From IMG/VR virus record IMGVR_UViG_3300029915_000364: a stretch of DNA of 13,578 bases; one strand, given 5' to 3'. The notes beneath the pieces were generated by a model. The model had not been told where the DNA came from and ran no database searches. It was given only the letters and a program-made list of their open reading frames with translations. Shown here piece after piece: positions 7,040 to 13,459 of the stretch. A program made the position numbers and the translations under genes. Position 1 is the stretch's first letter, and the number at the start of each line of letters is the position of its first letter. The DNA is from a virus.

Positions 7040-7856
7040 GGTACACTCCGGCCCAAATGTTGGCAAACGCCTCCGGGGTCCAGTTACCAACCAAGTCTGA
7101 TACTTGACCGTCTCCAATTTCTACCACCCGAGGCTGGCCGTCGTCGCGAATCGCGATGTCCACGGAGTAGAAGGGAGACGCCACGCGGGTACGAACAGTC
7201 TCAAGCAGGTCGTAAATACCGTTGGTGTCCACCTTTGCCCACTCCCCCGAAACCCCGATAGTCCGTCCTTGGATAACGAAGAAGCGGCGTTCGTCGGTCA
7301 GTTTCTCCACCCGGCGAACACAGATGCCGCCCTCCAACTTGCCACGGAATTTTGTCATGGCATCAAGCAGTGTGAGGACATCTTGCGGTGTCGTCACCGA
7401 TGGATGGTTCTCCAGCTTCAGGGACTTCACATAGTCCTTGATAAAGTAGTGCTCCCACCCCAATGCCTGTAGAGCCAGCACGAGGTTGAACTGCGGGGTG
7501 AAACAGAACTCAGGAAAAACTACAGTATCAGGAGTCAGCCCCGCTATCAGCGGGTACCAGCACGGCAGGTGGTGACAGCGAATGTAGTCCTCCGGGCGAG
7601 TAAACAGCCGCCCACCCATCGTCTTCACCTTGTCTGTCATAGCGCGGTATTCAGCCGAGTTTAGCATCCAGCCACGATACACTACCACAGCACCATCGAA
7701 CCCTCTCGGGTTGTTACTGCAATCTCCCCAGATTCCACCTGCCTCAGTGGAGTACACAGAGTTGGGGTAGCGTTTCAGAGCGGACGCCTGCGGGGCGAAA
7801 TACTCATCCAGCTTTTTCGGGTTCAGCGGGTCAGCCGGGAATATGAAGTGTAGCAT
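7032..7856 (-). CDS. ATP-grasp domain protein (RimK-related / R2K-clade amidoligase, DUF4343-like)
   Basis: ATG at 7856 with GGAGG and AAGGG upstream is preferred over the GTG at 7940, which would overlap the upstream ORF by 31 nt and add a low-complexity N-terminus. The product has AVVVYRGWMLNSAEY near the N-terminus. Its C-terminal RFFVIQGRTIGVSGEW...SPFYSVDIAIRDDGQPRVVEIGDGQVSDL is typical of the ATP-grasp C-terminal subdomain found in phage-associated RimK-like ligases. Confidence 0.75.
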   Translation of the reverse strand: MLHFIFPADPLNPKKLDEYFAPQASALKRYPNSVYSTEAGGIWGDCSNNPRGFDGAVVVYRGWMLNSAEYRAMTDKVKTMGGRLFTRPEDYIRCHHLPCWYPLIAGLTPDTVVFPEFCFTPQFNLVLALQALGWEHYFIKDYVKSLKLENHPSVTTPQDVLTLLDAMTKFRGKLEGGICVRRVEKLTDERRFFVIQGRTIGVSGEWAKVDTNGIYDLLETVRTRVASPFYSVDIAIRDDGQPRVVEIGDGQVSDLVGNWTPEAFANIWAGVYHD

Positions 7857-7909
7857 ACCACCCTTTCTACCTCCGTGGTTTAGTATCCCCGGACAACCGA
7901 GGTTTGGCT

Positions 7910-8155
7910 TTAGTGGCCGTAGTTGCACCCGACCATCCACTCCCGGCCTTGCAGGTCAGTCACTGTGGTTTCAAAGCTACCACAGCACCCCCGGCTTCTG
8001 GCTTCCTCGAACAACGCCATGGAGGTCAAGTCGGAGGTCAAGCCATACCGCTGGTTGTCGGCGTACTCCAGCCCGTCGTCCTCAACGAACGCATCCAGAG
8101 CAGCTTTCACTTCAGACGGTACTTCAATGGGGGCACTCGTGCTAAATTTTTCCAT
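7910..8155 (-). CDS. Hypothetical small Cys-containing protein (81 aa)
   Basis: ATG at 8155 with GGAG 6 nt upstream. The acidic N-terminal half (DAFVEDDGLEYADNQ) is followed by RGCCGSFETTVTDLQGREWMVGCNYGH. It sits 53 nt upstream of the ATP-grasp gene. Confidence 0.5.
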   Translation of the reverse strand: MEKFSTSAPIEVPSEVKAALDAFVEDDGLEYADNQRYGLTSDLTSMALFEEARSRGCCGSFETTVTDLQGREWMVGCNYGH

Positions 8156-8244
8156 GTCATCTCCGAAAAATATTCAGCGGCGAGGATACGATGAATTCAG
8201 CACATCGGCCAGACCGCACGTGTTTTGTCAGCTCAATCTTGAAA

Positions 8245-8273
8245 GTGGGGGCGGGGTGCTAGCCTACCCCCAC
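8245..8273 (-). terminator. Putative terminator hairpin after the Ku gene
   Basis: Minus-strand RNA would read GUGGGGGUAGGCUAGCACCCCGCCCCCAC, a GC-rich 7-bp outer stem, followed by UUUCAAGAUU. The U-tract is weak, so this could instead be an attenuator or regulatory hairpin. Confidence 0.4.
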
Positions 8274-8280
8274 GATGTCG

Positions 8281-9267
8281 TTACTTACCAGCCTTTGCAG
8301 CCTTCTTGTTGGCCAGTGAAGCCTTCAAAGCGGCCATCAGGTCAACCGTGACCACTGCGGTGGCGTCCTGCTTCTTGACTTCAGGAGCGGCCACGCCAGC
8401 CTTCTTGGCGGTCAGCAGGTTGCGGAAGCGAATCGAGAACTTGTCGTTGTAGTCCGAGGAGACGAACTTGTCAGACATCGCCTCGCCAAGCTGCTTCGCC
8501 AGAGTCTTCTCGTCCTCGCTCAGGACAACCGGGGCAACCTTGTCGAAGATGCGGATTTCGTGTTCGAAGTACACGAAGTGAACCGCCAGACCAACCTTCA
8601 AAGGGCGGATGATGACAGTCTGTTCACGCCCCCTCTGAGCGGTCTGAGCAACAGCCACCTGACCCGTGCTCACCAGCATCTCGCGGAAGACGGCGAGGGC
8701 GCGTTCGACAATCGAACCACCATCGGCTCCGAGGTACTCGGCAGCTTCGAAGTACAGGGGGTCAACTTCCGTCGCCGGAACCAGCTTCTCAACGGTCATG
8801 ACCTTGTCGGCCAGAACCATGCAGCCCTTCTTCTCGTCGTCAGTGATGACGAAAAACTTGCCGTCGTCATCCTTCATGCCCTTCAGGGACTGGGCACGCT
8901 CGACAATCGCCTCGCACGCCTCACACTTCATCGCACCCTGCTTAAGCTGTCCGTACACGGGAGCCTCTTCAGAGGCTTCGTGGTTGCACTGGTGAATCAT
9001 GTTGGTCTTGAACTTCTCGGAGTCCTCAATGACCTTGTAGGTCTTGACGGGGACGGTCAGGCCATTCGCGCCCTCGATGACGACCAGCTTACCCGACCAA
9101 GTCGAACGGCCACAGCCAACCTTCTCGGGGGCGGCGGCGTTCACATCGGCGAACTCAACCTTCGGGTGGAGAAGGTTGTTCAACTTGCTGGAGAGGTCGG
9201 CGACACTAGGCTTCGCGGGAGCCGCGACGGGGGTTTCGGTCTTCGATGTGTTCTTTGCCTTTGCCAT
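8281..9267 (-). CDS. ku: Ku-family DNA end-binding protein (NHEJ Ku homologue) with an N-terminal extension and a Lys-rich C-terminal tail
   Basis: ATG at 9267 with AAGGAGAAACACC upstream. The bacterial Ku core is recognisable: STWSGKLVVIEGANGLTVPVKTY, then KGMKDDDGKFFVITDDE, then EVDPLYFEAAEYLGADGGSIVERALAVFREMLVSTGQVAVAQTAQRGREQTVIIRPLKVGLAVHFVYFEHEIR, then the Lys/Ala tail LMAALKASLANKKAAKAGK as in mycobacterial-type Ku. An extra roughly 50-aa Ala/Pro/Lys-rich N-terminus precedes the core. Confidence 0.85.
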   Translation of the reverse strand: MAKAKNTSKTETPVAAPAKPSVADLSSKLNNLLHPKVEFADVNAAAPEKVGCGRSTWSGKLVVIEGANGLTVPVKTYKVIEDSEKFKTNMIHQCNHEASEEAPVYGQLKQGAMKCEACEAIVERAQSLKGMKDDDGKFFVITDDEKKGCMVLADKVMTVEKLVPATEVDPLYFEAAEYLGADGGSIVERALAVFREMLVSTGQVAVAQTAQRGREQTVIIRPLKVGLAVHFVYFEHEIRIFDKVAPVVLSEDEKTLAKQLGEAMSDKFVSSDYNDKFSIRFRNLLTAKKAGVAAPEVKKQDATAVVTVDLMAALKASLANKKAAKAGK

Positions 9268-9289
9268 TTTGGTGTTTCTCCTTATGTTT

Positions 9290-9322
9290 ACAGTATACCG
9301 GGGAAGTACCAGATTTGTCTAC
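9290..9322 (-). promoter_or_regulatory. Putative phage promoter, copy B of the conserved element
   Basis: Minus strand reads TGTAGACAAATCTGGTACTTCCCCGGTATACTGTAAACATAAGGAGAAACACCAAAATG. It has -35 TAGACA, an 18-nt spacer, -10 TATACT, and the same GGAG..AAACAC leader as copies A and C. Confidence 0.45.
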
Positions 9323-9639
9323 AATTTTAGCTCTTCATCGTGCGTAAACGTAAATTTCCAGCCGCATCGGTCGCAGCGAGAGGAATATCGCACGTAAAAC
9401 GCTATCTGGCCATTGAATTCTTTGTAGATAAGCGTGCCCAGCGTGTAGTCTTCCCGGAGCGTACACTGGTCTTCGGAGCGCAAGTCAGCCCTGTACTTTG
9501 CGGCCTCCGTAAGCTGAGCAAGGTACCGCTCTGGGGTGACTTTTCCGTAGGAAAGGAGAGCCTCCCTGTCCTTTTTATCAGCTTCCTTCTCGTTGTTTAT
9601 TGTGCATCGTGGGCACTGTGCCCACTTACTCGCGCTCAT
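9319..9639 (-). CDS. Zinc-ribbon protein (CPRC...CDRC), 106 aa
   Basis: ATG at 9639 with GGGGGAT upstream. CxxC pairs sit near both termini (C9-P-R-C and C-D-R-C-G-W) with about 80 aa between them. It lies between the rIIB terminator and the Ku promoter. It could be a small DNA-binding or regulatory protein, but I recognise no family. Confidence 0.6.
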   Translation of the reverse strand: MSASKWAQCPRCTINNEKEADKKDREALLSYGKVTPERYLAQLTEAAKYRADLRSEDQCTLREDYTLGTLIYKEFNGQIAFYVRYSSRCDRCGWKFTFTHDEELKL

Positions 9640-9672
9640 AGAATCCCCCTGATTCGATCCTTTGAAGAATTT

Positions 9673-9708
9673 TCAAAATAAACCGGGAGCCCTGTACGGC
9701 TCCCGGTT
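9673..9708 (-). terminator. Rho-independent terminator after the rIIA/rIIB-like gene pair
   Basis: Minus-strand RNA would read AACCGGGAGCCGUACAGGGCUCCCGGUU (11-bp stem, 6-nt loop) followed by UAUUUUG. It lies about 40 nt downstream of the stop at 9746..9748. The flanks are asymmetric, so it is unidirectional for the minus strand. Confidence 0.65.
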
Positions 9709-9745
9709 CGGGCAGGGTAGAAGGAGAATGGACTACCCCGAATTG

Positions 9746-10978
9746 TTAGTAACCCCCGTCGTCTTCCTCGTCACAGTCCTCATCTTCCTCGTACTCATCT
9801 TCCTCGTCGGAGGGCTCGCCCAGATCGACGCGCTCATCTTCCTCCGGGACTGCTGACGCAGGTGTTGGGTAAGCAACCCCGGCAGCCTTAGTCAGAGCGA
9901 TGATTCCTTCGAGATACGAGTCAATCTCGTCCTGTGTGGGGTTTTTCTTGCGTTCGAGGTTGTATGCCTCAGCCGTGGACACGTCCATGGCCTTTGCCAC
10001 CTGCGAAGTGGTCAGCTTAGCCGCCACACGTGCGGGGCGAAGCGGGTTCTCGAACAGCTTGGACTGTTCCACCGGAACCGTCTCGCCGAACTTCGTGAGC
10101 CAACTCTGCAAACGAACCAGTGATGCCTTACGGAATGACTTGGGGTTCAGCTTCTTGTTACGCACCAGACGCTTTACAGCCGGGAGCGAGGTCAAAGCCT
10201 TAATCAGGTCGCGACGTTCCTTGTTAATAGCCAGCACGCCCTTACCCTCCAACTCAGCGTAGCCCTCAGCCGTGAACTCGATTTCGTCCTTGTTACCAAG
10301 TTCTCTCATGACTTCGTAGCGGGTGACACGCATCTTGCCACCGTTGGCCGAGAGGACATCACGCGGGTGAATTTTCACCTCCATGCACTTCGAACCATAC
10401 GTGCCATACTTCTTCGAGCACACGTGGTAGCCTGAGGCGCATTGCGTCCGCCAGTTGGCGTCCACCAGGTTGCGGGAAGTGATGATGATTTCGCCGGGTG
10501 TGTTCAGTACGGTACCCGTGTGGGTATCCGTGTAGTCGTCACGGACGTACTTATACGCCGCGAAGGTACCGTCGTCATAGATCGGCAACTCGTTATCCAT
10601 CAGCCACTCGTAGAACTCAGAGATAGCTTCCGGCTGCGGGTTCTTGTACAGGTTGTCCATGAACTTCAGCAGCGAAGCCACAGGCTGACCGTGGTCGATG
10701 AGTTCAAGCATCCGCTTGGTCAGAGTCGAGTTGACTTCGCGGCCTTTGTATGTCACCAGACCCCTTTCAATCTTGACGTGGCCGTGGCTTTGGTTGGCAA
10801 TCTGCTCCGCCAGCGAGACCAGTTTCGGAATCTTCGCCCACGCCTTTGCCTTCAGGGCAGCGACCACCTGCTTGAATGTCGGGTGGCTGGGAACCAACTG
10901 GAACGAGCGTCCTCTGACGATTACCGATACGAAATCGGGCGTCATGATGTAGGGTACTGCTGCCTGTAGGTTAGACAT
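9746..10978 (-). CDS. rIIB: rIIB-like protein with a C-terminal HTH-like segment and a long acidic tail ending in Tyr
   Basis: The ATG lies in ATGTCTAA and overlaps the TAA stop of the upstream rIIA-like gene by 8 nt, with AAGGAG 10 nt upstream. The core DDGTFAAYKYVRDDYTDTHTGTVLNTPGEIIITSRNLVDANWRTQCASGYHVCSKKYG...VKIHPRDVLS...KMRVTRYEVMREL fits my recollection of the conserved rIIB block. Its position immediately after rIIA supports the call. The C-terminus reads EEDERVDLGEPSDEEDEYEEDEDCDEEDDGGY. Confidence 0.6.
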   Translation of the reverse strand: MSNLQAAVPYIMTPDFVSVIVRGRSFQLVPSHPTFKQVVAALKAKAWAKIPKLVSLAEQIANQSHGHVKIERGLVTYKGREVNSTLTKRMLELIDHGQPVASLLKFMDNLYKNPQPEAISEFYEWLMDNELPIYDDGTFAAYKYVRDDYTDTHTGTVLNTPGEIIITSRNLVDANWRTQCASGYHVCSKKYGTYGSKCMEVKIHPRDVLSANGGKMRVTRYEVMRELGNKDEIEFTAEGYAELEGKGVLAINKERRDLIKALTSLPAVKRLVRNKKLNPKSFRKASLVRLQSWLTKFGETVPVEQSKLFENPLRPARVAAKLTTSQVAKAMDVSTAEAYNLERKKNPTQDEIDSYLEGIIALTKAAGVAYPTPASAVPEEDERVDLGEPSDEEDEYEEDEDCDEEDDGGY

Positions 10979-13379
10979 ATGCGGTCATCTCCTTGATGTT
11001 ATCGTTAATGCTGGACTGTGCTTCACGATTCGCATCTTCCAGCTTGAAGTAGTTGGTTACTACCACCGCTTCCTCTATTGTACCAGCCATCCAGCTAGAA
11101 CGGCCAGTATATTTCATCATCGGGTAGAATTCTTTTACTTCATCCCACTTCTTCCCGAAGTCGATAACCACTCGCTGCGGCATCGTGTACTTATTACGGG
11201 CGGCGGCTACCTGAAGTACGCTCTGCAACGCAGTGCCTTCCGCCTTAGTGCGGCTCTCCTTGGCCTTATTCAATTTGACTACGAACTGCTGTACCGGGCT
11301 CTCTGCGTCCATGGGGTGCTCGGTCATGTAATCGAACACGAAATCCCAACTGGTAGAGAAGTTGCCAATGCAATCCACCATGGTCATGCGCTGTTCACGA
11401 GCCGGGGTCATGTGCTTCTTGACAGCCGCCCAGACCGCTGGCATGTAGGGCTTCCAATCAGCACCTTCAATCAGCTTCGAGTTAGCCTTCAGACCGTAGA
11501 CCGGAACATCCAGAAGGTTCGACTCGCGAACCGAATTGACAAACCTCACGAACTCCCGGGCTTTGTAGAACCCCGTGGACTCGTGGCCGGAGCCACTGCC
11601 ATCCGTAATGACGTAATACTTCATGCCGGGGAGGTCGATGACATCGTTGTCAGCCTTGTCCCAAGCCTTCGCCCAGCCCGCGCTGCCACGGCGGGGGTGG
11701 GGCACTTCGTTCACCAGTACCGAGACGTTGCGGCGTTGGCGGGGGATGGCTACTCCCTTCTCTCGCGGAGTGTCCACAAATTCGCCATAGCGTGCCTTCA
11801 GCTCGGAAGCGAGGGTGACAGGCGGATTGCCAAGCTTCTCCATCATGGTGAGCCCCTGCGACATCACCGTGCTCATGTCCACTGACTTGTTCTGACGATT
11901 GACGCAGTACACCAACGTCTTGCCGCCACGGTCAACCGCGCACTGGAGGAAGTAGCCAATGTACTTATCCGCAGAGACCTTCAGGTCATTGATGACGAAG
12001 GCCACCTTGGGCTCGACTTCCACCCGTACATCGTAGTTCTTGCGGCATGTCGGGTCTTCTGCGATGCGGTCACGCATGTTTTTGACAGACGCGGCGTTGA
12101 AGGAGAACAGTGATTCCTTCTTGGCTCTCTTCTCAGCCCGAAAATTGTAGCTGTACTGAGTGAGCTGAATGCCCTCATAGTCGGATTTGTTGACCACGGC
12201 CATCTCATCGCTCATGGTGAAGTGGCTGTAGTTGCCCAAGAGTAGACCGTTGTTGTAGGCATCGTTGACAATCTTGCCGAGGCTTCCGCCTCGCGAAGTC
12301 AGGTCGTAAATCTGGAGCCGTGCTTCCCAGACAGCAGCGCACTGGTCAATCTTCTTCTTGATTTCCTCCAACATCCCCTCATGAACCCCGTCTAGAGCCT
12401 TCAGGATGTTGCCGACAGTACGTTCGTCCAACTGAATGAACTCGCGGGAAGCGGTAACTTCCAAGTCGCCAATCGGGAGGAAGATATCCAACTCCATCTC
12501 GCTGATACGCCGCTGGTGGGTATTCATGCGGCTGATGTCGATGTCGCCCACATCGTAGGGCACGATGCCCTGAATCGCCCGGAGACCGCTGATGGTGCTG
12601 ACGGTGTTGTCACGCAGACCCCACTTCTCGGTTCTGATGGTGTAAATCTGTTTGTTTATCGAAATTTCTTTGTTGAAAATCGGCAACGGGGAGAAGAACT
12701 CGAACACACTACGTGCCTTGTTCTCAAACTCCCAGATGTCCCCAATCTTTACCGGGAGGGAAATTTCCACCCCATTGGGGGAGTCCGGGGTATCCTCCTT
12801 GCTCTGAAGGACGACCGTGGGGAAGCCATTGTGTACCGCTGCCTGATAGATGCGGGTGACACCCTCGTAGCGGTTGGTGATAGAGAATCCGCCGCCCTTT
12901 TCGTCATAGCAGAAGGGGCTCTTGGAGCCGATGCCCATGGCACCGATGAACTCATTGGAGTCGTTCTTGTCGCTGGCGAAGTAGATGCAGTACAGGCTAA
13001 TGACGGCATCATAGTCGCCAGTGCCGTCGCAGTCGGGGCAGGGGGTATCACCGTGCTGGGTCTCTACAAGACCAACACCATGGCACTGTTTGCAGCCCCC
13101 CTCGATGTACTTCAGGCCAGTGCCGAAGTCATTAAGGCGGAAGGTCGGGTCGAAAGCGGTAGGCAGGTGAATCTCGAAAGGTGTGTCGGCTTTGCCAGCA
13201 GCGACATGAGCGTCCCTGGCGTTGCAAGCCAATTCGCGGAGGATAGCTTCAATCTTGCTATTGTAGATGCCCGACGAAAAGAGCTTGAAAGCCAAAGCAC
13301 TGTTGTTGAACGAGAATGCTCTGGGGCGGGTTAATGCCCCACCAACTTCCATTGCACTACCTGCGGTTCCTAGTTTCAT
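10971..13379 (-). CDS. rIIA: rIIA-like GHKL/Bergerat-fold ATPase (Hsp90/HtpG-like N-terminal ATP-binding motifs) with an inserted CxxCxGxG zinc finger
   Basis: ATG at 13379 with GGAGAG 10 nt upstream is preferred over the TTG at 13397 used by the track, which lacks an SD. The N-terminus closely matches my recollection of T4 rIIA at three points. LAFKLFSSGIYNSKIEAILRELACNARDAH resembles [30 protein letters not shown] (GHKL N-box, E-x3-N-x2-D). AFDPTFRLNDFGTGL resembles LDPRFVCRDFGPGM (G1 box, DxGxG). SNEFIGAMGIGSKSPFCY resembles SNDFIGGFGLGSKSPFSY (G2 box). The region between the G1 and G2 boxes contains GGCKQCHGVGLVETQHGDTPCPDCDGTG. Confidence 0.8.
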   Translation of the reverse strand: MKLGTAGSAMEVGGALTRPRAFSFNNSALAFKLFSSGIYNSKIEAILRELACNARDAHVAAGKADTPFEIHLPTAFDPTFRLNDFGTGLKYIEGGCKQCHGVGLVETQHGDTPCPDCDGTGDYDAVISLYCIYFASDKNDSNEFIGAMGIGSKSPFCYDEKGGGFSITNRYEGVTRIYQAAVHNGFPTVVLQSKEDTPDSPNGVEISLPVKIGDIWEFENKARSVFEFFSPLPIFNKEISINKQIYTIRTEKWGLRDNTVSTISGLRAIQGIVPYDVGDIDISRMNTHQRRISEMELDIFLPIGDLEVTASREFIQLDERTVGNILKALDGVHEGMLEEIKKKIDQCAAVWEARLQIYDLTSRGGSLGKIVNDAYNNGLLLGNYSHFTMSDEMAVVNKSDYEGIQLTQYSYNFRAEKRAKKESLFSFNAASVKNMRDRIAEDPTCRKNYDVRVEVEPKVAFVINDLKVSADKYIGYFLQCAVDRGGKTLVYCVNRQNKSVDMSTVMSQGLTMMEKLGNPPVTLASELKARYGEFVDTPREKGVAIPRQRRNVSVLVNEVPHPRRGSAGWAKAWDKADNDVIDLPGMKYYVITDGSGSGHESTGFYKAREFVRFVNSVRESNLLDVPVYGLKANSKLIEGADWKPYMPAVWAAVKKHMTPAREQRMTMVDCIGNFSTSWDFVFDYMTEHPMDAESPVQQFVVKLNKAKESRTKAEGTALQSVLQVAAARNKYTMPQRVVIDFGKKWDEVKEFYPMMKYTGRSSWMAGTIEEAVVVTNYFKLEDANREAQSSINDNIKEMTAYV

Positions 13380-13399
13380 GTGGTTTCTTCTCTCCAATC

Positions 13400-13412
13400 A
13401 CAGTATACCGGG
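13400..13412 (-). promoter_or_regulatory. Putative phage promoter, copy C of the conserved element, upstream of rIIA
   Basis: Minus strand reads CCCCGGTATACTGTGATTGGAGAGAAGAAACCACATG, with the same TATACTGT-(3..6)-GGAG-(8..10)-ATG layout as copies A and B. The -35 is unclear here. Confidence 0.4.
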
Positions 13413-13421
13413 GTTGACACC

Positions 13422-13459
13422 TTTTTGGCTATTGTTTTAGAGATTTTTTTTGGCTATTG
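13422..13459. repeat. Tandem direct repeat TTTTTGGCTATTG x2 (25-bp periodicity), lying between the end of the edge ORF and the rIIA promoter
   Basis: Exact 13-nt copies sit at 13422..13434 and 13447..13459, separated by TTTTAGAGATTT. The second copy contains the TAG stop of the edge ORF. Confidence 0.6.

Follow-up and report, generated by a model that had tools for sequence, protein, structure and literature searches.

The window analysed here, which is the whole stretch of 13,578 nucleotides of viral DNA held as IMG/VR record IMGVR_UViG_3300029915_000364, carries on its minus strand, at 8281..9267, an open reading frame (ORF) that encodes a genuine bacterial-type Ku protein. This Ku bears an N-terminal extension specific to a clade of phage relatives, and the same phage encodes a minimal ATP-dependent DNA ligase that accompanies N-extended Ku in related lineages. 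In the explanation favoured here, which on the sequence evidence is about evenly poised between true and false, an early-expressed pair of Ku and ligase would cap and join phage DNA ends, the Ku protein being functional and of a phage-specific subtype. A host end-joining ligase is probably not needed.

Identity and fold of the phage Ku

The gene was delimited from the list of ORFs and its translation together with family and fold matches. It starts with ATG, encodes 328 amino acids and ends with TAA at 8281-8283; a strong Shine-Dalgarno sequence, AAGGAG, was read directly from the sequence 10 nt 5' of the start (9278..9283, minus strand). The product was found to match PF02735 over residues 69-245 (74.2 bits against a cut-off of 25, E 1.7e-20), PHROG 4873 'Ku-like DNA end binding' (2.4e-29), and TIGR02772 over model positions 12-259 of 259 (E 4.3e-39, 134.5 bits). 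The equivalog cut-off of the last model, 150 bits, was not reached, so that by the criterion of the National Center for Biotechnology Information (NCBI) the phage protein is a divergent relative rather than an equivalog. A PDB sequence search returned bacterial Ku chains only, from B. subtilis and M. tuberculosis.

An AlphaFold2 (AF2) monomer model was built on 107 homologues, with a mean predicted local distance difference test score (pLDDT) of 80. Its top Foldseek matches were the DNA-bound Ku structures of B. subtilis (9vnq) and M. tuberculosis (9i91), with template-modelling (TM) scores of 0.79-0.80 normalised to the target and E values of about 1e-16 to 1e-17, and the model has the Ku beta-barrel with its bridge and pillar elements. 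An earlier note, made from the letters alone, had claimed a clear Ku core and had named another beta-barrel DNA binder as the identity that would overturn the claim; the claim is borne out by Pfam, PHROG and NCBIfam profiles, by PDB sequences and by the fold, and the profile search excluded the other identity. Its assignment of the gene to a phage also holds, with rIIA and rIIB upstream, a tail-fibre-like gene at the left end of the window, and every relative on a viral or metagenome contig.

The beta-barrel core comprises residues 55-245 (8533..9105, minus strand), as placed by the Pfam match, alignments and model strands from residue 55 on. In common with bacterial Ku (M. tuberculosis Rv0937c, B. 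subtilis YkoV; PF02735/TIGR02772), the phage protein has a single-domain beta-barrel core (TM about 0.8), a Cys/His cluster in the same loop, a C-terminal DLMxALxxSL motif followed by a basic tail, and a partner ATP-dependent ligase in the same genome. The Cys/His cluster (H92, C94, H96 ... C115, C118) carries a clade-specific insertion. Unlike bacterial Ku, the protein is phage-encoded, is only about 30 % identical to it and scores below the TIGR02772 cut-off, and its partner ligase is without polymerase and phosphoesterase domains; the remaining differences lie at its two termini.

The N-terminal extension and the C-terminal region

The extension comprises residues 1-54 (9106..9267, minus strand), as placed by homologue comparison, and consists of a basic start MAKAK, a helix, and a Pro/Ala linker ending AP-EK. 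Its length is 54-56 residues; the first core strand's conserved Trp comes after 56 residues, versus a median of 6 (range 5-18) in the next-best 100 Ku homologues, in none of which was an extension found. The Ala/Pro/Lys-rich character ascribed to it earlier is real, since these residues make up 19, 9 and 13 % of the extension versus 11, 3 and 9 % of the remainder of Ku. The comparison with other phage Ku proteins that had been suggested was run, and the extension is missing from Omega gp206 and other IMG/VR Ku genes. It is common to the relatives P0002-P0007 (33-87 % BLASTP identity) and to the IMG/VR loci L007-L012 (P and L numbers are working labels).

The spread of the extension was followed with an exhaustive Ku profile search of 1.84 billion cluster representatives, which gave 14,199 Ku matches at E up to 0.001. 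About 41-46 of the best 150 representatives (metagenome clusters at 50 % identity) match into the extension. After them comes a clear step to ordinary Ku proteins, whose start is at about position 52-55 of the profile. A metagenome scan for further loci of the clade gave mostly bacterial Ku genes among the matches listed.

A predicted amphipathic helix at residues 22-33 (VADLSSKLNNLL; 9169..9204, minus strand) is the one ordered element of the extension in the AF2 model, with a pLDDT of about 74 and low-confidence linkers on both sides. The helix motif [VI]A[DE][LI]S..L occurs in 22 of 45 clade representatives and was not found in any other protein of the scanned phage loci. Among the closest 11 relatives, P35, P47 and K49 are invariant or nearly so. 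The ratio of nonsynonymous to synonymous substitution rates (dN/dS) of the extension, taken from the sister group L007/L008/L010 and not from the 87 % relative P0002, is 0.2-0.4, similar to that of the rest of the Ku gene; the extension is therefore translated and constrained in that group. A SAP or HeH domain was considered but is unlikely, as only one helix is predicted. An E-K(K) motif 5-8 residues before the core is conserved in the clade, and a docking or protease site is possible there.

At the other end, the minimal C-terminal region of bacterial Ku was aligned to residues 246-318 (8314..8532, minus strand), which end in DLMAALKASL (residues 309-318). Among 107 Ku sequences, D309 and L314 are invariant, and L310, M311, A312, A313, K315, S317 and L318 show at least 90 % conservation. 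In B. subtilis and M. tuberculosis this minimal region is necessary for contact between Ku and LigD and for stimulation of ligation (PMC4889933, PMC9638933), and in M. tuberculosis the minimal region and the core act on the ligase domain of LigD (PMC9638933).

The basic tail that follows, ANKKAAKAGK (residues 319-328; 8284..8313, minus strand; homologue comparison), has 10 residues, 4 of them Lys, and is shorter than the tail of every one of 100 bacterial-type homologues (median 34, minimum 15). Thus a Lys-rich tail is present as the earlier note had stated, but its description as an addition does not hold: bacterial Ku ordinarily has this basic extension, which is shortened here. The median tail of the N-extended clade is 12 residues. 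Twelve of its 45 members end in (A/S)GK-COOH, where a docking or protease site is likewise possible. Gain of the tethered N-terminal helix and reduction of the basic tail therefore define this Ku subtype.

The phage ligase and its co-occurrence with Ku

A minimal ATP-dependent DNA ligase of 261 amino acids is encoded at L031:19066-19851, on the same phage contig and strand as Ku. The gene is outside the window, about 15 kb downstream of Ku and past the tail-fibre cassette. Its product has the ligase motifs I (KFNGER), IV (EGVVIK), V (FKLKF) and VI (LRKRNDK). The ligases of the Ku phages are 256-271 amino acids long and consist of nucleotidyltransferase and OB domains only, with no polymerase or phosphoesterase domain. 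In the 45-member ligase family, the Lys, Gly and Arg of motif I and the RxDK of motif VI are invariant or nearly so; several members were found on contigs of 250-430 kb.

A model of the orthologue P0135 (pLDDT 94.8) is that of a two-domain DNA ligase, and its matches include the LigD ligase domain. A LigD-specific fold was not supported, as Foldseek gave generic ATP-dependent ligases with LigD among many. At the level of profiles, TIGR02779, the ligase domain of non-homologous end joining (NHEJ), was the best NCBIfam match for two of three ligases tested (L010, L037), far below cut-off; for the window phage, PRK08224 (generic ATP-dependent DNA ligase) was best and TIGR02779 third, all far below cut-off. 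The scores for TIGR02776 and TIGR02779 were 32-73 bits against cut-offs of 373 and 228.

Orthologues of this ligase, 42-53 % identical, occur with N-extended Ku in all four lineages having enough sequence. The distance between the two genes varies: the ligase is about 15 kb from Ku on the same contig in the window phage, 9.7 kb downstream of Ku on the same contig in the P0005 phage (L037), and about 15 kb away on the same 40,474-bp contig in the P0003/L038 phage. In the L007-L011/L020/L045 group the two are adjacent, with the ligase starting 10 nt past the Ku stop. The L007-L011 group has no other gene of the window within 10 kb, except an A1S_2505 homologue; because so little else is shared, the link between Ku and ligase appears functional and not a matter of inherited gene order alone. 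Furthermore, each of the seven IMG/VR contigs that the ligase profile recovered comes from one of these Ku phages. No ligase was found within 10 kb of Ku in L012 or L038, even at E = 10.

In several respects the pair resembles the two-component NHEJ system of Ku and LigD, namely in the genetic linkage of an ATP-dependent ligase to Ku, with adjacency in one sister lineage, and in the best profile match of two of the three phage ligases. It differs in that the phage ligase is a minimal two-domain enzyme and not a multidomain LigD, that motif I is mostly KxNGxR, that in the window phage 15 kb separate the two genes, and that profile scores are far below the cut-offs.

Promoter and probable transcription unit of Ku

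A sigma-70-like promoter, TAGACA-N18-TATACT, was found upstream of Ku at 9290..9321 on the minus strand (10 of 12 in the promoter scan), with its hexamers spanning 9321-9292 and with the conserved block CCCGGTATACTGT. Copies of the same type were found by promoter scan and 13-mer match upstream of rIIA (13400..13431, minus strand) and of orf241 (3555..3585, minus strand). In fact, the 13-mer CCCGGTATACTGT has exactly three copies in the window (3555, 9290 and 13400), all on the minus strand and each just 5' of the start of one of these genes, and none of 200 shuffles reached three matches; the promoter was thus rightly described earlier as Ku's own and conserved. A fourth copy of the promoter motif, at L031 18894-18923, is the nearest one to the ligase and lies 143 nt before its start, so that about 40 kb of phage sequence holds four such sites on the coding strand. 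The -35 hexamer of Ku (9316-9321, minus strand) takes its first three bases from the TAG stop of a 106-amino-acid ORF upstream.

The Ku genes of sister phages are preceded by a similar element, GTATACT, which has an xCAAA box upstream of it. In two of these phages, L037 (1650-1766) and L040 (6150-6260), the Ku ATG is just 6 nt past the TATACT element, which suggests that their Ku mRNAs may be leaderless; the predicted Ku mRNA of the window phage, by contrast, has a 25-nt leader with a Shine-Dalgarno sequence.

A GC-rich hairpin, GUGGGGG(U)...(G)CCCCCAC, starts 7 nt past the Ku stop (8245..8273, minus strand; fold and inverted repeat I13). The hairpin that had been called terminator-like is therefore present, but it is followed by UUUCAAG only, a weak T-run, and was not called by the terminator scan. 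The 76-nt region of which it is the main element has a centroid of -17.2 kcal/mol, no more stable than shuffles (z = -0.06). A canonical terminator after Ku was rejected on these grounds, and the element is kept as a hairpin with a weak T-run. GC-rich hairpins are also present 3' of Ku in L037 and L040, and cleaner terminators were found 3' of rIIB and of the vault-like gene. With a promoter of its own and a hairpin downstream, Ku thus looks like a single-gene unit, presumably transcribed from a host sigma-70-like promoter.

Genomic context and relatives

All substantial genes of the window are on the minus strand. They run in the order rIIA, rIIB, a 106-amino-acid Cys-rich ORF, Ku, an 81-amino-acid ORF, an R2K ATP-grasp protein, a PTH2-like hydrolase, an 819-amino-acid vault-like protein, small ORFs, an A1S_2505-family protein, and the 5' part of the tail-fibre-like gene. 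Rfam and tRNA scans of the window found no RNA genes. The order rIIA-rIIB-Ku is kept in five lineages (window, L012, L035/L037, L040 and L041), and the order Ku...PTH2...vault-like...orf241...A1S_2505...ligase is kept across several. Ku relatives are found on contigs of 100-310 kb with rIIA and rIIB.

The window is 99.9 % identical to several metagenome contigs of the Joint Genome Institute (JGI), up to 36 kb long and from different samples, which we take to be peat-bog metagenomes. A megablast of positions 7000-10000 against 50,697 phage records gave no match, and the phage is therefore without a close cultured relative in that set.

The rIIA gene (10971-13379, minus strand; PHROG 612, 1.1e-98) is followed by rIIB (9746-10978, minus strand; PHROG 609, 2.3e-56). 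A mechanical call of the rIIA start (TTG 13397) falls within the -10 element of its promoter (window 13379-13431, minus strand), and the real start is probably ATG 13379, which gives 802 amino acids, has GGAGAGAAG upstream and agrees with the JGI call. The Cys-rich ORF between rIIB and Ku (9319-9639, minus strand) contains CPRC...CDRC, likely a zinc ribbon, and is missing from this place in sister phages.

The R2K ATP-grasp peptide ligase (7032-7856, minus strand; PF14243, 6e-18) adjoins the PTH2-like peptidyl-tRNA hydrolase (6505-6933, minus strand), and roles in modifying the translation apparatus or in countering a host defence are possible for the two proteins. That the R2K protein is a disguised DNA ligase was rejected, with an R2K_3 match of 6e-18 and no match to a ligase model. 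A second R2K paralogue is present at L028 2781-3626, about 11 kb upstream of rIIA. The vault-like protein (3915-6374, minus strand) has the shoulder domain of the major vault protein (MVP; PF11978, 3.5e-26) and a Vault_3 repeat, and is about 40 % identical to proteins of LR756500, LR756501 and LR756503, which are 462-735-kb records of uncultured phages; at least three lineages (window, L037 and L038) keep its gene at 2-3 kb downstream of Ku. Homologues of MVP in viruses were reported before (bioRxiv 10.1101/2023.11.10.566534).

The A1S_2505-family gene (2213-2800, minus strand; NF049995 9.7e-36, PHROG 2072) encodes a phage non-structural protein and lies 0.4-2.5 kb from the ligase in all relatives (L010, at 12164-12547; L037, L124, L131, L134 and L137). 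Because Ku, the ligase and this gene all fall within 2.5 kb in the L010 group, the A1S_2505 protein may be a third member of the Ku-ligase module.

The tail-fibre-like gene (1-1907, minus strand) runs off the left end of the window. Its product has 860 amino acids in L003/L030 versus 570 in L004/L031, contigs that are otherwise 99.9 % identical, and three more assemblies stop inside it; for both reasons it looks like a hypervariable host-range locus.

Comparison with other phage end-binding proteins

Mycobacteriophages Omega (gp206) and Corndog (gp87) also encode a bacterial-type Ku, of the same PHROG 4873. Their proteins are 26-28 % identical to the window Ku, and Omega gp206, of 282 amino acids, has no N-terminal extension. 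The two phages are described, in passages of PMC4351075 and PMC12848934, as reliant on host LigD and as having 4-nt cohesive ends. The window phage differs from them in the genomic setting of its Ku, which is that of rIIA/rIIB phages presumed to be from peat, and in having a ligase of its own.

The Gam protein of phage Mu is, as cited in a passage of 10.1101/2020.04.14.041137, a phage end-binding protein that protects ends and can promote joining with a ligase. It resembles phage Ku as a functional analogue in DNA-end binding, but it is without the minimal C-terminal region of bacterial Ku and works with the host NAD-dependent ligase. The window Ku gave no match to the Gam family in the Pfam scan, where PF02735 was the only match. 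The earlier note's use of Mu Gam as a family precedent is thus not upheld, and Gam is an analogue in function.

Proposed mechanism and alternative explanations

Based on the findings above, a mechanism is proposed in which Ku would be expressed from a sigma-70-like promoter of the rIIA type, in a unit closed by the GC-rich hairpin. By homology, a homodimeric Ku ring would thread onto double-stranded ends of the phage genome, either injected termini or ends cut by host nucleases. Its most likely partner would be the phage's own ligase: Ku would hold and protect the ends and recruit or stimulate the ligase through its minimal C-terminal region and core, and the ends would be sealed. The N-terminal extension would serve as a flexibly tethered short helix, probably an element for docking a partner, and would go together with a basic C-terminal tail that has mostly been lost.

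Several observations weigh against a joining role for the pair. The affinity of the ligase profile to NHEJ ligases is weak and is not specific at the level of fold; the window phage and 37 of the 45 members of the putative ligase family carry KxNGxR as motif I, where KxDGxR is canonical; and in L012, whose genes are arranged as in the window, no ligase was found up to 10 kb from Ku. Of the four co-occurrences, three involve related phages that share gene order, and part of the signal may be due to common ancestry. The ligase of L136 is near primase and DNA polymerase genes, and the ligase may therefore be replicative. A word-indexed search gave 46 matching ligase clusters versus 7 clusters of the Ku clade, but the exhaustive Ku search later gave about 41-46, which takes the weight from that comparison. 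The last three of these points, the last with that reservation, also favour a serious rival, which is possible, although we would not put it first: Ku would shield phage ends from RecBCD/AddAB-type exonucleases, in the manner of Mu Gam or T4 gp2, without dedicated ligation, and the ligase would be a replication or repair enzyme that co-occurs with Ku since the large phages concerned are related. Ku also lies together with rIIA/rIIB and with probable counter-defence genes (R2K ATP-grasp, PTH2), and its promoter looks early; this setting would suit such a shield, which the earlier note had raised as a possibility too. However, the L007-L011 group has Ku and ligase as a tight pair of genes, with only A1S_2505 otherwise shared with the window within 10 kb; the ligase-interacting minimal C-terminal region is fully kept while the DNA-threading basic tail is reduced; and NHEJ ligase models are the best NCBIfam match, if a weak one, for two of the three ligases.

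The earlier note had supposed that the phage may depend on a host NHEJ ligase for circularisation. On this account the phage would have short cohesive ends, and Ku would recruit host LigD after injection as in Omega and Corndog, for which Pitcher et al. 2006 is the precedent as cited in passages of PMC4351075 and PMC12848934; in principle, host LigD is a possible contact of the conserved minimal C-terminal region (PMC4889933). The account is unlikely to apply to the window phage. The phage encodes its own ligase, conserved alongside Ku, and the Omega/Corndog model is therefore not needed; the Omega Ku, without the extension, is only about 26 % identical; and the relatives are on contigs of a size class, with rIIA/rIIB, that leans to headful packaging. 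Large phages of the rIIA/rIIB type package their DNA more often by headful than with short cohesive ends.

Very improbable, finally, is delivery of Ku in the virion, in which the extension would be a capsid-targeting sequence or propeptide cut at E-K(K), and the packaged and injected Ku would cap ends on entry. Prohead proteases of T4-like and phiKZ-like phages are known to cleave after Glu, the Pro/Ala-x-E-K(K) motif is nearly invariant (P47, K49) at its distance from the core, and the extension is predicted to be flexible apart from its one helix. Nevertheless, Ku is among early-type genes, with a promoter shared with rIIA and not with structural genes, and known protease sites are not consistently matched by the residues that precede the Glu.

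The early Ku-ligase pair favoured here can be placed in a wider proposal, which at present is rather doubtful: that N-extended Ku and the KxNGxR ligase, possibly with the A1S_2505 protein, constitute a self-contained viral end-joining module, carried beside rIIA/rIIB by a family of large soil and peat phages. As a counter-defence based on repair, the module would reseal double-strand breaks that restriction enzymes, CRISPR nucleases or further nucleases of the host make in phage DNA, and the helix of the extension would dock a phage partner, taking over from the bacterial basic tail and from the contact with the LigD polymerase domain.

Significance

A recent survey listed 11 viral Ku proteins, all from actinophages (PMC11936186), and another found 11 Ku-encoding phages (10.1101/2020.04.14.041137). 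Of 87 records that matched Ku in the phage collection searched in this work, 86 were Mycobacterium phages. Phage-encoded Ku has thus far been described almost only in actinophages, where it is thought to borrow host LigD for circularisation of genomes that have short cohesive ends. In the literature that could be searched, no description was found of an N-extended Ku subtype, of a minimal ligase paired with it, or of the gene order rIIA-rIIB-Ku.

The Ku protein family itself is ordinary; a natural module of Ku and a two-domain ligase in large phages would be a plausible counter-defence. N-extended Ku constitutes a distinct and fairly diverse subtype in uncultured large phages, and the conserved order rIIA-rIIB-Ku gives a new clue, from gene arrangement, to what the rII proteins do, which has long been unclear. 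Should the two proteins act together, they would constitute a complete minimal end-joining system of Ku and a two-domain ligase, and the simplest natural NHEJ machine known. Such a pair would also be a candidate for a compact end-joining tool to use in heterologous hosts, and for the phages that carry it, it would offer a possible route to survive host defences that cut DNA.

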